64,000 nt of DNA from positions 94,408-158,407 of the forward strand of contig JBPOJJ010000002.1 in NCBI GenBank assembly GCA_052033715.1, in the 5' to 3' direction. Under the pieces are notes generated by a model that saw only the letters and a program-made list of their open reading frames with translations, was not told where the DNA came from and searched no databases. Source of the stretch: Patescibacteria group bacterium. GTDB taxonomy: Bacteria; Patescibacteriota; Minisyncoccia; Phycocordibacterales; CSBR16-119. Positions 44,056 through 49,569 of this stretch are shown here, piece by piece (the stretch's first letter is position 1; each line of letters begins with the position of its first letter). The position numbers were made by a program, and so were the translations under genes.

Positions 44056-44113
44056 TCTAATAGTTTACAGGCTTTAGTCACCAGAGGCCAGTTAATATTG
44101 ACTTTTTGTTTAT

Positions 44114-44506
44114 TTGTGTTATGTTAAGGGCCAACCTGACAAGCACATGAAAAACATCGTATTGGTCGTCCCGCACCCGTTGATATCGGCAACCTTCCAG
44201 GATGTTCTTGGGCTCAAGGATCATTGCTTTTTACGGGCAACGACCGCTCAAGAGTTCCGTACGATCGTGGAGCTCTTGGACCCGGCACTGCCTGACTTGG
44301 TCGCTATGACAAGCGATGCATCGGATCCCGTGATCAAGGCCGTTGTTGATGGGTGGCCAGCCTTGCACGAGCGCATGGTGATCATGGCTATGGATCCTGC
44401 GGTCGCTTTTGACATGGTGCCATTGGTGTCTGTTCCCGTTCTTCCTAGGAGCAATGATCGATACAGCGACTTCTTCAAGAAGTGTCGTGAGATCCTTGGC
44501 GAGTAG
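44114..44506 (+). CDS. Hypothetical protein, GC-rich (~52%), possibly degenerate receiver-like fold; start may be internal Met (44147)
   Basis: Strong terminator at 44524-44558 (GCCGAAGCCCCCATCTCGGGGGCTTCGC + T-run). Interrupts the usual ruvC-yebC adjacency on the opposite strand. Confidence 0.45.
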   Translation: MCYVKGQPDKHMKNIVLVVPHPLISATFQDVLGLKDHCFLRATTAQEFRTIVELLDPALPDLVAMTSDASDPVIKAVVDGWPALHERMVIMAMDPAVAFDMVPLVSVPVLPRSNDRYSDFFKKCREILGE

Positions 44507-44556
44507 TAGAACTGCTCGCAAAAGCCGAAGCCCCCATCTCGGGGGCTTCGCTATTT

Positions 44557-45072
44557 TTATCCCGCGCTTGTATAAACATCTTGGATGTCGTCACGGTCTT
44601 CGAGTGCTTCGACGAGAGCCGACAATTTTTCCGAATCTTCTTCGGATAGTTCTGTTTTCATGTTTGCCACCCAGTCGCCTTCGGCACTCTTTGTAAAATT
44701 CCAAGCGACTGATCCAACACCACCCAAACTTGTTCCGTGTGTGTCGAGGAGATGTCTAAGTTCCTGACTACTCCTGTTGATGCTGTCGGTAAGTCCGGTC
44801 GCGAGAATTCCCACGCCACCTGGTCCATAAAATTCAAAAAGTATTGGTGTCATCTCTGCGCCGTCGGTTTTCTTTATCGCGCGTTCGATGTTTTCACTGG
44901 GCATATTTTCCTTTCGCGCTTTTTCAATCGCGGCTTTGAGTCCAGGAGAACCGAGGTTACCACCGGCCTTTTTTGCTTCCATAGAAATTAATTTTGCTAA
45001 TTTAGAAAAAACCTTCGCTTTTTTGGCGTTATTGTCCGCCATCTTTCCTAGTTTTTTGTGTGTTGATCCCAT
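44557..45072 (-). CDS. yebC: YebC/PmpR-family probable transcriptional regulator (short, 171 aa)
   Basis: N-terminal domain matches YebC (KAKVFSKLAKLISMEAKKAGGNLGSPGLKAAIEKARKENMPSENIERAIKK). Classical neighbourhood with ruvC/ruvB. Confidence 0.7.
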   Translation of the reverse strand: MGSTHKKLGKMADNNAKKAKVFSKLAKLISMEAKKAGGNLGSPGLKAAIEKARKENMPSENIERAIKKTDGAEMTPILFEFYGPGGVGILATGLTDSINRSSQELRHLLDTHGTSLGGVGSVAWNFTKSAEGDWVANMKTELSEEDSEKLSALVEALEDRDDIQDVYTSAG

Positions 45073-45073
45073 G

Positions 45074-46036
45074 TTATTTTTTTATACCCAAGTGTCCGTA
45101 AGCTTTGTCTGTGGCCACTCTTCCACGAGGTGTGCGTTCGATAAATCCGAGTTGTAGTAAATACGGTTCGATGACTTCTTCAATCGTCGCTTCTTCTTCG
45201 GATGTGGCGGCAGCGAGAGTGCCGAGACCAACTGGTCCGCCGTTGAATTTTTCTATAAGTGCCCGGAGAACACTTCGGTCGGTTTCAAAAAGTCCCATTT
45301 CATCGACGCCGAGAAGTTCCAGTGCCTTTTTCACATTTTCTGAATTCATATCTGCCTTGTTAACCTGCGCGTAATCACGAGCGCGTTTTAGGAAATAATT
45401 CGCTGTACGAGGAGTGAAACGACTTCGCTTTGCGATTTCTTTGATTGCCTCGGTTTCAGAGTCGACGTTCAATATCTTGCTTGAGCGTGCGAGAATCCTT
45501 TCCATTTCTTCATTCGTATAAAATTCAAGCCGATGAATTCCTCCCGAGAATCGTGAACGAAGTGGCGCTGACATCATGGCCGGACGAGTAGTGGCCGCGA
45601 TGAGGGTAAATGGAGGGAGGTCGAGCTGAATCGTTCTTGCCGACGGACCTTTGCCGATGATGATATCGAGAACGCCAGACTCCATAGCAGGGTAGAGGAT
45701 TTCCTCGACCATTTTGTTTAGGCGATGTATTTCATCGATGAAGAGGATGTCGCCGGACGAGAGGTTGGTCAGAATTGAAGCCAGGTCACCAACTTTTTCA
45801 ATTGCGGGGCCGGAAGTAATTTTAATTTGTCGGCCAGATTCTTTGGCGATCAAATGTGCGAGCGTGGTCTTACCAAGTCCAGCCGGTCCATGAAATAAAA
45901 TATGTTCGGGCGCGTGATTGCGCTCTTCGGCCGCTTGAATCAAGATCTTCAAGTTCTTTTTTATTTTCTCCTGACCGATGTATTCGTCCCATGTGCCAGG
46001 GCGGAGTTGGTTGTCGAGAAAGATGTCATTTTCCAT
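45074..46036 (-). CDS. ruvB: Holliday junction branch-migration helicase RuvB
   Basis: Walker [13 protein letters not shown], Walker [14 protein letters not shown]+ plus winged-helix C-terminus. Confidence 0.9.
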
Positions 46037-46084
46037 AATTTTATTTGGGGGCCGTGTTCCTCCGTAGCTTTATGCGAAGGGGGA

Positions 46085-46113
46085 TTGACAAACGTATTTA
46101 AAAATGTTATATA
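46085..46113 (+). promoter_or_regulatory. Sigma70-like promoter (TTGACA-17nt-TATATA)
   Basis: TTGACA at 46085-46090, 17-nt spacer, TATATA at 46108-46113. Reads into the candidate structured RNA. Confidence 0.5.
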
Positions 46114-46119
46114 TAAGCG

Positions 46120-46393
46120 CGTTAGGTATAAATTTAAACGTTTATCTCTCACAGTATAGCATTTTTGAAAAATATCGGTTTAGGGGCTTTACAAGAATTT
46201 TGAGGGTGTTATATTTATCACCCAAGCAGAAAGAGCCCTTTAACCTCTAAGTAATCGGGCACAGTTCATATGGTTTCAAAGAGGACGTCATGGTTACCAC
46301 TTCGGTGGAGTTACTGCGACTATCCTTCGCGATTTCATTACTTTTGGTTTTCAATCAAAAGGATTATTTAGAGGTTAAAGGGCTTTTTATTTG
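46120..46393 (+). ncRNA. Candidate structured ncRNA (~270 nt): long imperfect helix closed by a 16-bp stem, UUCG-capped apical hairpin, ends in T-run
   Basis: GCCCTTTAACCTCTAA (46235-46250) pairs with TTAGAGGTTAAAGGGC (46368-46383), followed by TTTTTATTTG. Interior has GGTTACCACTTCGGTGGAGTTACT. No ORF, own promoter. Class unknown (6S-like?). Confidence 0.35.
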
Positions 46394-46447
46394 CAAAAAA
46401 ACGAGGAAGTGATAGTTTGAATAACGAACACACCTAACACCACTTTC

Positions 46448-46651
46448 ATGAAACCGTTTAAAGCCATCTCTCGGGTGCTTCTGATACTTACGGCCGCGAC
46501 CTTCCTTCATAGTCTGGTCCGGCCGGAACACCTAAGCTTCCTGTCCTGGTTGCGCTGGGTGTTCTTGGGCCTCACTATCGTTTTTGCGGTCGTGAACTTC
46601 TTGCTCTCTTTGGTCAACAATCCTCAAGAAGATGGACCCCCAGGAGCATGA
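46448..46651 (+). CDS. Small membrane protein (two TM), GC-rich (~52%)
   Basis: 67 aa hydrophobic ORF followed by terminator GAAAGCCTCGGCACTCCCGAGGCTTTC (46658-46700). Confidence 0.35.
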   Translation: MKPFKAISRVLLILTAATFLHSLVRPEHLSFLSWLRWVFLGLTIVFAVVNFLLSLVNNPQEDGPPGA

Positions 46652-46704
46652 AGTCCTTTGTCGCCTGAAAGCCTCGGCACTCCCGAGGCTTTCGCGTTTT
46701 AGTT

Positions 46705-48537
46705 TTAATTTTCTTTTGTTGAGATCGGGATTTCATCCTCGGCGTATTCGTAAATGTCGACAACTTTTTTCAATTCTTCGATAGAGGTAACTCCGTTTAT
46801 GCATTTTACAAATCCATCCTCAACCATATTTAGAATTCCTTGTTTTTCGGAAATTTCTTTGATTTCTTTTTCACTTGGATTCATCGGCATGATATTTTGC
46901 AGAGCCTCATCGGCCATGATCGCCTCAAAGACCCCAATGCGGCCTTTATAACCAATACCATTACAAGCAGGACATCCTGGCGCCGTCCAAAGTTCTATTT
47001 TTTGTTTTGGGTCGACGTTGTACTCTTTTAATTTTTTTCCAAGTTTGTCGGCGCGGACCAAAGTTTTTCCAATAACGTCTTCCTCTTCCTTGGTTGCTGG
47101 TCTTTTGATCTTACATTTAGTACAAAGTTTTCGAGTGAGGCGTTGCGCGATAGCCATTGAGAGCGCTGAAGCAAGAATTTTTGGATTGACTCCGAGGTCG
47201 ATTAGACGAGGCACGACGCCGGCGGCGTTGTTGGTATGGAGGGTTGAGAATACCATGTGTCCAGTGAGCGAGGCCTCAACGGCAATACGCGCTGTGTCAG
47301 AGTCACGGATTTCTCCAACCATCACCACATCAGGATCCTGACGCAGGGCCGAGACAAGTCCCTCGAGGAAGTCGTAACCACGCTCGGGATTGGTTTGTGT
47401 CTGGGTTATTCCTTCGAGGTGATATTCAACCGGTTCCTCGATTGTCAGAATTTTAATTTCCGGCGAGTAAATTCGACGCAAGAATGCGTAGAGAGAAGTA
47501 GATTTTCCCGAACCTGTCGGGCCAGTGATAAGGATGAGTCCGTTTGGTTTATCAATCTCGCGCGAGATGATCCCGTAAAGTCTTTTGTCGATTCCCATAT
47601 CCTCAAGATCAACTTGAATTGATTTTGGATTCAAGATTCGCATGACAATACCTTCGCCGAACGCTCCGGGAATGATGCTGGTTCGCATGCTAATTTCTTC
47701 ACCACTTACGAAAATAGAAAATCTTCCATCTTGAGCTTTGTTGTGTGCTAGTTTTAGACCAGATAGAAGTTTGATGCGCGAATTTATGAATTCAAAAGTT
47801 TTGTAATCGATGAATGTGATATTGTGAAGTATTCCATCGAGCCTGATTCTCAAACGCACTTGGCCATCTTCGGGCTCGATATGTACGTCAGAAGCGCCAA
47901 GCGCGATTGCGCCCGCAAAAATAATTTCAATAATTTTTGAAACTCGGTGTGTCGTGGTTTCTGCGTTTGTCGCGTCGATCATTGTCTTGATGTCTTCGAG
48001 TAACTTAATTTTTTCGGCTGTTTTTAAAAGTGTATCGCCGGAAATATCCAAGCTTCCGGCTTTTATTTTTTCCGCTTGAGAAATTTCTTGGTAGCGATCC
48101 CAGGCTTTTTCAAGTGAGGCATGCGAAGCCATAAACCAACTAATTACAAAACCTTTTCTTTTCAAATCGGCTTCGAGTTCAGCCAAACCATCGTGTTCTG
48201 GTGCGCGAACGGCGACCAAGAGTTTTTTTCCGGCGATATTAAAGGGTGCGACCTCTAGTTTTCTAGCCAGATCTTCCGGAACAGTCTTGAGGGCGTCGTT
48301 TTCTAGGATGACTTTGCTCAAATCCACGTAGGGGACATGATATTTGGTCTCAGCTAGAGTCTTGGCCAAAGCCTCCTCCTCCTGTAAATAGAGAAGTTCG
48401 AGCTTTTTATCCTCTTTTTGGTCATCGAATCGGGGCATATTGGTAAACATATTATACGGGAAATTGTCAAAAAACCCTTGTTTTTCCTGTGTATTTAGAC
48501 CAGGAAAGGGGCGGTTTAAACGCTTGACAAGATTCAT
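46705..48537 (-). CDS. pilB: Type IV pilus / type II secretion assembly ATPase (PilB/GspE family)
   Basis: Walker A GPTGSGKST, Walker B/Asp box, tetracysteine CPACNG...C, N-terminal GSPII-like domain. ORF-track N-terminal extension to 48939 rejected (overlaps divergent gene). Start placed at MNLVKRLNRPF (ATG 48535-48537). Confidence 0.85.
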   Translation of the reverse strand: MNLVKRLNRPFPGLNTQEKQGFFDNFPYNMFTNMPRFDDQKEDKKLELLYLQEEEALAKTLAETKYHVPYVDLSKVILENDALKTVPEDLARKLEVAPFNIAGKKLLVAVRAPEHDGLAELEADLKRKGFVISWFMASHASLEKAWDRYQEISQAEKIKAGSLDISGDTLLKTAEKIKLLEDIKTMIDATNAETTTHRVSKIIEIIFAGAIALGASDVHIEPEDGQVRLRIRLDGILHNITFIDYKTFEFINSRIKLLSGLKLAHNKAQDGRFSIFVSGEEISMRTSIIPGAFGEGIVMRILNPKSIQVDLEDMGIDKRLYGIISREIDKPNGLILITGPTGSGKSTSLYAFLRRIYSPEIKILTIEEPVEYHLEGITQTQTNPERGYDFLEGLVSALRQDPDVVMVGEIRDSDTARIAVEASLTGHMVFSTLHTNNAAGVVPRLIDLGVNPKILASALSMAIAQRLTRKLCTKCKIKRPATKEEEDVIGKTLVRADKLGKKLKEYNVDPKQKIELWTAPGCPACNGIGYKGRIGVFEAIMADEALQNIMPMNPSEKEIKEISEKQGILNMVEDGFVKCINGVTSIEELKKVVDIYEYAEDEIPISTKEN

Positions 48538-48633: not shown

Positions 48634-49569
48634 ATGAAAAAGCTGTTTTCCCTCCTCGCCATCTTCGTGATGGCCCTGAGCATGAACGCTCAGCAGAACA
48701 ACGCAACCCTGCTTCAGGGGCAAGCGTACCAGATCATGCAGACCATGGAGCGTGATAGCGTCCCGCAGATGACGATCGGAGTCGGTGGCCTCATCGCCAA
48801 CGGCCCGGCAGTGTCTCCTCGGACGGTTTCCCCTCCTGCTTCTGCACAACGCCCCGCGGCGAACAATGGTGTTCCCGCGAAAGCCAAAACGACGAAGATC
48901 AATGGTGTTGAGGTGTTCGTCACCCCGTACGGCCTGCATCTTCCAGGAGACATGTTCCCTGACCCGAATACAGGCGAGGAACTAGTCGTTGATGATTACG
49001 GTAACGTGCTCAAGACCGGCAAGATGTGGAAACAAGCGCCGCTACCTAATCCCAGCAACAACACGGGAAACGCGACAGCTAGTTTGACGGTGGTGCCTTC
49101 GATCGGCGATCTCTACGACACGTTGCCTGGCGGCCGCATTGTGGCTATCGGCGATGTGCGCGTGATCGATTCGGCAGGAAGCACTACTCAAGCCGGTTCA
49201 GGAACAGCCTCTACTGGTGGCGAATCGAAGTTCAAGAAGATGCAGATCGCACCAAACGAAATCCTCTTCAACGAGGAAACTGGTGAGGTTGCTCTGCTCG
49301 ATCGTCGCCGTGAGCGCTTGCGCACAAACCGTGGATACGGCGTTGGCACTAGCCCCGAAGAAGATCATCAACCGAATACGTGGCCGAACGCAATGGCTGC
49401 GCGGTTCAGTTCGATCGATGGTTCTGGAAGCGCCGCGAGCGGTGGAATGATGCTTGGTGCCGGAGGTGTTGCCTGCGGTCCGACCGTGGTCTACAATCAA
49501 CGGCCTCGCGCCGTTGCTACTTACGGTGTGCGTGGTGGTGATTGCTGGACTCCTTCGTGGAGGCGGTAG
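48634..49569 (+). CDS. Secreted hypothetical protein, strongly GC-rich (~57%)
   Basis: Signal peptide MKKLFSLLAIFVMALSMNAQ. Gly/Ala/Ser/Pro-rich. No family recognised. Composition very different from genome background. Confidence 0.6.
   Translation: MKKLFSLLAIFVMALSMNAQQNNATLLQGQAYQIMQTMERDSVPQMTIGVGGLIANGPAVSPRTVSPPASAQRPAANNGVPAKAKTTKINGVEVFVTPYGLHLPGDMFPDPNTGEELVVDDYGNVLKTGKMWKQAPLPNPSNNTGNATASLTVVPSIGDLYDTLPGGRIVAIGDVRVIDSAGSTTQAGSGTASTGGESKFKKMQIAPNEILFNEETGEVALLDRRRERLRTNRGYGVGTSPEEDHQPNTWPNAMAARFSSIDGSGSAASGGMMLGAGGVACGPTVVYNQRPRAVATYGVRGGDCWTPSWRR

Follow-up and report, generated by a model that had tools for sequence, protein, structure and literature searches.

The window analysed here, a stretch of 64,000 nucleotides of contig JBPOJJ010000002.1 from a Patescibacteria group bacterium, very probably carries a member of a genuine family of stand-alone structured non-coding RNAs (ncRNAs). 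The element lies between ruvB and the gene of a PilB/GspE-type ATPase (pilB) and is called the ruvB-linked RNA below. Comparative sequence analysis showed a conserved non-coding RNA gene with its own predicted promoter and terminator, whose product has a four-way junction kept by selection on one strand. An initial annotation of the window had proposed a novel structured ncRNA with both signals at this position, and the proposal was borne out by homologs, covariation, a strand bias of G.U pairs and the conservation of promoter and terminator.

A scan with the RuvB protein of the window yielded 80 ruvB loci from GTDB genomes, the closest of which belonged to Paceibacteria/'Parcubacteria' metagenome-assembled genomes with RuvB identities of 57-77%. 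The intergenic region of the window matched 20 of these 80 loci in an nhmmer search, in every case just upstream of ruvB and on the opposite strand. A covariance model built from the nhmmer-matched loci (R1) matched 32 GTDB Paceibacteria loci at 56-155 bits (the opposite strand did not exceed 48 bits), and a second model (R2) gave five weaker matches at the same position (L030, L033, L034, L037 and L055). The window scored 146.6-155.5 bits and was among the best members of the family. A pattern of the two boxes of helix P1 matched at least 120 metagenome contigs, and R2 confirmed 77 of the 80 metagenome loci tested (89-142 bits). These loci had one RNA copy each at a constant position, R2 found a single copy in the window, and the total length of the homologs was 158-185 nt.

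The conserved RNA was located at 46226-46394 on the + strand, where it was predicted as a four-way junction of helices P1 to P4 followed by a run of U residues. Its parts, several of them taken from the minimum free energy (MFE) fold, were as follows.

46226-46256, + strand: 5' strand of P1, containing the nearly invariant box CUCUAAG (46245-46251)
46257-46267, + strand: P2, a short hairpin of the MFE fold (GGGC-ACA-GUUC)
46270-46338, + strand: P3, a long irregular composite hairpin of the MFE fold
46270-46277 with 46331-46338, + strand: outer stem of P3
46282-46286 opposite 46320-46326, + strand: conserved AGGAC of P3 opposite CUAUCCU, with a C/UA internal loop
Within P3, + strand: G.U-rich helix, UGGU with ACUG
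46297-46308, + strand: UUCG-capped hairpin CCACTTCGGTGG at the tip of P3
46341-46361, + strand: P4, a 9-bp hairpin (CUUUUGGUU-UUC-AAUCAAAAG) that abuts the 3' strand of P1
46362-46394, + strand: 3' strand of P1, containing the box UUUAGAG (46367-46373) and running into the U-run
46385-46397, + strand: U-run (T-run in the DNA)

The UUCG-capped hairpin and the terminal T-run had both been noted in the initial annotation and were found as described. The perfect closing stem of 16 bp described there exists as a run between two G.U positions, but it is part of a longer stem of 27-31 bp. The arms of the inverted repeat (46230-46256 and 46362-46388) are 27 nt each, 93% complementary and separated by 105 nt, and P1 reached 31 bp in the MFE fold (46226-46256 with 46362-46394). 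Both non-Watson-Crick positions of the 27-bp core are G.U on the + strand. In the 64-kb window the arm sequence was present only as this pair, with 0.00 occurrences expected by chance. Folding of 46120-46400 (+) by RNAfold gave -85 kcal/mol (z = -6.76), which none of 200 shuffled sequences equalled, and the reverse strand gave z = -4.87. Linkers within the junction were 0-1 nt for P1/P2 and P4/P1 and 3-4 nt for P2/P3 and P3/P4. These lengths suggest a tRNA-like arrangement in which P1 would be stacked on P4 and P2 on P3.

Covariation supported the fold. RNAalifold on a MAFFT alignment gave 46 pairs, and compensatory double changes were present in 30 of these. Pairs were also counted over 46 modelled pairs in a model-based alignment of 80 distinct sequences, an alignment that favours the structure to which it was fitted. 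Standard pairs occupied 93.4% of its cells, compared with 41.5-51.7% when partners were slid by 1-3 columns, changes on both sides occurred in 39 of the 46 pairs (615 cells), and none of 500 column shuffles reached any of the observed pairing measures. A 32-sequence alignment gave the same picture. We argue that the covariation signal is real despite the model-fitted alignment, because the MAFFT result is independent and the effect is large. Double compensatory changes were found in 23 of the 26 modelled pairs of P1 and covariation in seven of the ten inner and all four outer pairs of P3 and in five of the six modelled pairs of P4. The fold and covariation analysis with relatives that had been put forward as a check thus returned a conserved structure, and the long irregular helix that had been envisaged as the interior gave way to a four-way junction supported by covariation.

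Sequence conservation was concentrated in helices P1 and P3 and not in the loops. The C-U-C/G-A-G pairs of the P1 box (CUCUAAG/UUAGAG) were invariant in the 80 sequences, as was the P3 pair G86:C111 within the G.U-rich helix YUGGU/ACUGG. Other conserved segments included AGGAC opposite (C/U)UAUCCU in P3 and the CUUU/AAAG base of P4. Apical loops and outer P1 varied freely; the outer third of P1 was kept as pairing only and the inner 14 bp were kept in sequence. P2 and the inner part of P4 fell in insertion columns and were folded separately: a hairpin of 3-9 bp with unrelated sequences was present at the P2 position in 31 of 32 homologs, a P4 hairpin of differing sequence was present in nearly all, and several P2 or P3 tips were UUCG tetraloops. 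Mutual information with average product correction (MI-APC) on the 80 sequences mostly recovered the nested helices and their extensions and showed no pseudoknot or loop-loop contacts. Two further signals were covariation of a non-canonical pair (C.A to U.C) in the internal loop of P3 and a correlation of the last base of the P3/P4 linker with the innermost P1 pair.

Within the modelled pairs there were 183 G.U and U.G combinations compared with 30 A.C and C.A combinations. The RNA strand is the + strand of the window, since this asymmetry is expected only in that case. The asymmetry also bears on the explanation that the locus is a mere DNA palindrome, a bidirectional terminator or a repeat, such as a miniature inverted-repeat transposable element (MITE) or DNA-uptake sequence, with no functional RNA. 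The long inverted repeat, its purine-rich 5' flank and U-rich 3' flank, and the frequent termination of pilB within 0-50 nt of the element would suit a palindrome, whereas a conserved and covarying interior and the 183:30 ratio would not. A repeat, MITE, repetitive extragenic palindrome (REP) or DNA-uptake sequence was rejected on the single pair of arms and the one covariance model hit in 64 kb, and the related loci had one copy each at a constant position. We therefore regard this explanation as exceedingly improbable. A coding gene was rejected as well: although the region had been described as lacking any open reading frame (ORF), ORFs of 33-48 aa do exist there in the window, and what held was that no ORF was conserved among 109 homologs, in which the longest internal ORF was 6-52 aa on either strand.

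The window carries all the features proposed for the family, namely the P1 box, the P3 motifs, the P4 CUUU...AAAG base, the U-run and the position divergent from ruvB. Loci L034-L037, and perhaps L039, are probable divergent variants upstream of ruvB, in which a long P1 without mismatches encloses an interior of several stems. These variants share the P1-P4 layout and the YUGG/CUGG helix and differ in the details of P3; L039 has a perfect P1 of 21 bp and is preceded by TTGACA-17-TACAAT. The RNAs of L034-L037 and L039 may represent sub-families of the same RNA. Folding of the ruvB intergenic regions of Uhrbacteria, Moranbacteria, Doudnabacteria, Buchananbacteria and Peribacteria loci gave nothing comparable, and no known RNA was found at the same position in other Patescibacteria at the Rfam gathering score (16 more distant ruvB loci). 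The family occurs only in Paceibacteria and in Patescibacteria close to them. The P1-box pattern had no match in viral contigs and blastn against phage and plasmid collections gave no hit for the RNA, and a phage or plasmid origin was rejected.

Upstream of the conserved RNA the following elements were identified.

46085-46113, + strand: RNA promoter with -35 TTGACA (46085-46090), a 17-nt spacer, TG (46105-46106) and -10 TATATA (46108-46113)
46120-46225, + strand: variable 5' leader, antisense to the ruvB promoter and the 5' end of ruvB
46153-46161, - strand: extended -10 element TGCTATACT, probably of the ruvB promoter, facing the RNA promoter
46188-46215, + strand: second promoter-like site, TTTACA-16-TATATT with TG (10 of 12 matches), 14 nt before P1

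Transcription was predicted to start near 46120. A promoter of the form TTGAC[A], a spacer of 16-18 nt and TGnTAnnnT was present on the RNA strand within 160 nt upstream of P1 in 98 of 107 loci, with a perfect TTGACA in 93 of those 98 and the extended -10 TG in all of them, and the same rule gave six matches on the other strand. The TTGACA-17-TATATA promoter reported for the window was present and, judged by sequence, is the ortholog of this TTGACA-16/18-TGnTAnnnT family promoter, because the -35 hexamer, the spacer, the TG and the distance to P1 match those of the closest relatives. That distance is about 114 nt in the window and 113, 109 and 110 nt in L016, L135 and L100, respectively, and the nhmmer alignment to L016 starts at the TTGACA of the window. 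The promoter was skipped by two rule-based scans because its -10 hexamer ends in A, where the rule needs a T at position 6. Approximately 100 loci (L001-L161) gave a clean Paceibacteria promoter consensus, cTTGACA-17-TGcTATAMT (TGnTATAMT), that is usable for promoter annotation. The second promoter-like site was not conserved in the closest relatives and was specific to the window; it might serve as an additional start site or have arisen by chance.

Among homologs, 8 to 132 nt separated the -10 hexamer from P1, and the conserved alignment started at P1. The leader therefore lies outside the conserved RNA, and it is probably trimmed off the primary transcript. The RNA had been described as extending from the promoter; this stood for 46226-46394, and the approximately 105 nt between promoter and P1 are the variable leader instead. 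At the 3' end a U-run (at least 5 U in 8 nt) was present in 96 of 109 homologs, and we infer that P1 and the U-run together form an intrinsic terminator. The leader of the window contains a direct repeat of the 3' strand of P1 (46177-46190 and 46373-46386; GGTTTAGGGGCTTT and GGTTAAAGGGCTTT). This leader copy falls where the -35 region of the ruvB promoter would be expected.

The RNA locus is flanked by genes assigned by Pfam as RuvB, YebC, RuvC and a PilB-type ATPase, of which the two nearest are listed here.

45074-46036, - strand: ruvB (Pfam RuvB_N, AAA_lid_4 and RuvB_C), which lies outside the RNA
46705-~48300, - strand: pilB, a PilB/GspE-type ATPase gene (Pfam)

In the metagenome loci with enough flanking sequence, ruvB was upstream of the RNA and divergent from it in 69 of 69 cases (distance 70-315 nt) and pilB was downstream and convergent in 60 of 69. 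GTDB loci had the same ruvB/RNA/pilB arrangement, with ruvB upstream and divergent in all. The ruvB side was uninterrupted in all loci, while the pilB side tolerated inserts of 0.7-2.4 kb whose cargo was unrelated between loci and included a RAYT-like transposase and a cysteine-synthase-like gene. In the window, a hydrophobic ORF of 67 aa (orf67; 46448-46651, +) without an obvious ribosome-binding site lies between the RNA and pilB and is followed by a strong terminator (46666-46694). The GC content of 46448-46694 is 0.50-0.55 compared with approximately 0.37 in the flanks, and orf67 had no Pfam hit and no homolog among approximately 190 related loci. The ORF with its own terminator is one insert of the pilB side, a spot that appears to be an insertion hotspot. 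Relatives from both the GTDB and the metagenome sets had no downstream gene on the same strand as the RNA.

The RNA promoter is often just 14-47 nt from the ruvB start codon. In 56 of 100 loci the interval from the RNA promoter to P1 contained a perfect extended -10 on the ruvB strand (TGCTATAAT or TGCTATACT), at a quantised spacing of 24-25 or approximately 46 bp after the RNA -10 hexamer; none was seen in 37 of the 100. With the standard spacing from -10 to start applied to the facing promoters, the ruvB and RNA start sites would overlap by approximately 10-30 nt. Facing, overlapping promoters of this kind suggest mutual occlusion or interference. It could be proposed that the locus is mainly a cis-acting device, in which a strong promoter governs ruvB and perhaps also pilB through promoter occlusion, collision of polymerases or antisense pairing and the folded RNA is secondary. 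The gene is antisense to any read-through from pilB to ruvB, its promoter lies inside the ruvB 5' region and faces the ruvB element described above, and the linkage to ruvB is invariant whereas the pilB side takes insertions. A promoter and a terminator would however suffice for such a device, so that the approximately 105 nt of covarying interior, the invariant bases and the one-strand G.U bias would go unexplained. The loci without a ruvB-strand element and the widely varying spacing from promoter to P1 also argue against a cis device, and interleaving alone accounts for the synteny. We consider this explanation quite improbable.

A further alternative is a ligand-sensing, riboswitch-like aptamer, in which P1 is the terminator and the ligand would control read-through into the convergent pilB or into orf67. 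A four-way junction closed by P1, with conserved helices next to the junction, resembles the P1-P2-P3-P4 arrangement of SAM-I-type aptamers, and in the window the leader copy at 46177-46190 could pair with the 5' strand of P1 (-19.2 kcal/mol, z = -2.0). This pairing was not conserved, however, with a median z of +0.2 in 52 loci with long leaders and only the window at -2.0, and a conserved leader-P1 antiterminator was rejected. The P1 of 27-33 bp is far too long and stable for switching and would form irrespective of ligand. Unlike SAM-I-type aptamers, the RNA had no regulated downstream gene in its relatives and no Rfam riboswitch hit, and a cis-leader for orf67 was rejected with the ORF lacking homologs. 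An aptamer is accordingly a very improbable explanation.

Other features of the surrounding region were observed. The ruvA gene was at ~63240-63656 (-), at a distance of approximately 17 kb from ruvB. The compared loci of Firmicutes, Chloroflexi and Nitrospinae had ruvA directly upstream of ruvB, and in Paceibacteria the RNA gene and pilB occupy the position held by ruvA in those other phyla. Between yebC and ruvC, which are adjacent in relatives such as L007, the window has a gap of approximately 500 nt (44056-44556) with a GC content of 0.50-0.56 and ORFs of 130 aa (+) and 96 aa (-) that had no Pfam match; this segment may represent inserted DNA or a small, novel gene. The YebC/TACO1 gene (44557-45072, -) encodes 171 aa and its start overlaps the ruvB stop codon; approximately 158-176 aa align in relatives, and the usual length of YebC/TACO1 proteins is approximately 240 aa. 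The listed pilB ORF has 744 aa, of which an N-terminal extension of approximately 210 aa looks implausible, and relatives align only from ~48300. A + strand ORF of 311 aa (48634-49569) overlaps this extension; its start resembles a signal peptide (MKKLFSLLAIFVMALSMNAQ), and Pfam gave no hit for it. An exact look-up of the RuvB sequence of the window found no record.

Taken as a whole, the statement that the ruvB-linked RNA is a stand-alone, trans-acting structured small RNA of an undescribed family with a protein-binding role is, on balance, the account we favour, by a modest degree of belief. It is probably a housekeeping or regulatory RNA. High-level transcription would start at approximately 46120 from a promoter of the sigma-70 type and stop at the P1/U-run hairpin; high expression is predicted because a perfect -35 is combined with an extended -10. 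The leader would then be removed by exonucleolytic trimming up to the stable P1 or, alternatively, by an RNase III cut in outer P1, where the sequence varies; a perfect duplex as long as P1 (27-33 bp) is a textbook substrate of that enzyme. By either mechanism the mature RNA would be approximately 140-170 nt long, and it may act in a protein complex as its RNA subunit, as a scaffold or as a decoy. Protein binding, as scaffold or decoy, is proposed because sequence is conserved in the helices near the junction while the loops are free to vary. Candidate recognition surfaces are the 8-bp P1 box (CUCUAAG/UUAGAG), the AGGAC/C-UA-UCCU internal loop and the tandem G.U helix in P3. P1 would shield both ends of the RNA and probably also stops the convergent pilB transcript. 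The RNA gene would be physically interleaved with the ruvB promoter, which would explain why the RNA is always linked to ruvB, and the two genes could be expressed in a mutually exclusive manner.

Several points weigh against this account. The 5' end, processing and abundance of the RNA are deduced from sequence features, and the spread of 8-132 nt in leader length may reflect the use, in some genomes, of promoters closer to P1. The proposed scaffold role is drawn from the conservation pattern, and a ligand-binding or catalytic role would be expected to produce a similar pattern. The invariant linkage to ruvB could reflect a role in cis and not mere interleaving of promoters.

A broader form of the protein-binding proposal is that the RNA is a class-wide Paceibacteria ribonucleoprotein RNA, unrelated to 6S, Y, signal recognition particle (SRP), transfer-messenger (tmRNA) and RNase P RNAs, that recruits or sequesters a cellular machine; this is a tentative possibility to which we give slightly less than even credence. 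In its most daring version, the RNA junction could be a mimic of a Holliday junction or cruciform bound by RuvA or HU, an idea that arises because the gene occupies the place of ruvA in other phyla and is interleaved with the ruvB promoter. Whatever its partner, the RNA is very likely important to the cell, because a strongly promoted RNA of complex fold has been retained at a fixed locus across a class of streamlined genomes. Patescibacteria (the candidate phyla radiation, CPR) make up a large share of bacterial diversity and have genomes of approximately 1 Mb, and to our knowledge almost no ncRNAs have been characterised in them beyond the universal ones. The covariance model makes the RNA family searchable, and since groundwater metagenomes, from Hainich and other sites, gave many matches, its expression can be addressed with metatranscriptomes that already exist.

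The ruvB-linked RNA was compared with known families. Rfam 15 gave no match at the RNA locus when the whole window was searched at the gathering score, and no family matched 45950-46750 of the window or eight diverse homologous loci at E<=10. Hits of the Rfam searches outside the RNA were confined to tRNAs and chance matches. ARAGORN found no tRNA or tmRNA at the locus. SRP RNA, RNase P RNA, tRNA and tmRNA were thus rejected at the locus, in line with the initial annotation, which had recognised no SRP, tmRNA or RNase P consensus by eye. The Rfam scan, which had been suggested as a means of revealing a simple known leader, gave no hit and hence no such leader. In full-text literature on the ncRNAs of Patescibacteria, CPR, Parcubacteria and Paceibacteria, a coverage that leaves out most subscription journals, the RNA was undescribed.

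A resemblance to 6S RNA had been remarked on at the outset, and the locus could encode the 6S-type RNA of this lineage, a mimic of an open promoter that sequesters the RNA polymerase holoenzyme. In such a layout P1 would be the downstream DNA, P3 the upstream duplex, and P2 and P4 the two sides of the bubble. The likeness to 6S RNA (ssrS, RF00013; 6S-Flavo) held for the size (158-185 nt for the family, approximately 170-185 nt in the comparison), the pairing of both ends in a long terminal helix, an independent single-copy gene with a predicted strong promoter and a hairpin in the central region, on its 3' side. The 3' strand of the E. coli 6S bubble forms a hairpin (CCUUGAACC-AAG-GGUUCAAGG) that resembles P4, and no 6S RNA was detected in the window. 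The likeness did not extend to the models: there was no RF00013 or 6S-Flavo hit in the window or the eight homologs at E<=10, while the E. coli ssrS control scored 139.8 bits against a gathering score of 46.4 for RF00013, and R2 in turn did not hit E. coli 6S. Nor did it extend to the architecture. 6S RNA is a rod with an open central bubble, whereas the ruvB-linked RNA is a four-way junction with P2 and P4 on both sides; the would-be sides of the bubble are covarying hairpins, some of 6-9 bp with UUCG caps. P2 and P4 join P1 with 0-1 nt, so that P1 cannot stack on P3 as in a rod, and P1 is a nearly perfect A-form helix in contrast to the bulged closing stem of 6S. A 6S-type RNA is therefore an improbable identity for the ruvB-linked RNA.

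Bacterial Y RNAs and YrlA share with the ruvB-linked RNA a long terminal helix formed by both ends and containing a conserved sequence box, a multi-branched module at the other end and a stand-alone small RNA gene. In Y RNA the conserved box in the terminal helix binds a partner protein (Ro/Rsr). The ruvB-linked RNA differed in that neither the Y_RNA nor the YrlA model of Rfam gave a hit and ARAGORN called nothing tRNA-like, and in that its loops were variable, without a conserved T-loop-like loop. Its neighbours were ruvB and pilB and not rsr (Ro, TROVE domain) or rtcB, with the same synteny in more than 100 loci. By analogy, the ruvB-linked RNA would work most like the protein-binding RNAs with long terminal helices, such as 6S and Y RNAs, and it may yet turn out to be functionally analogous to a known class.

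The orphan RNAs Bacteroidales-1, Acido-Lenti-1 and raiA, discovered through comparative genomics, likewise combine a covarying complex fold, occurrence in one lineage and their own promoter and terminator. They differ in sequence and fold, their Rfam models were unmatched, and the ruvB-linked RNA has a fixed position interleaved with the ruvB promoter. The ruvB-linked RNA is a family of its own among the lineage-specific orphan structured RNAs. OLE, raiA and HEARO (omega RNA) were orphan RNAs of comparable complexity and were eventually recognised as ribonucleoproteins or guide RNAs, which had not been expected.

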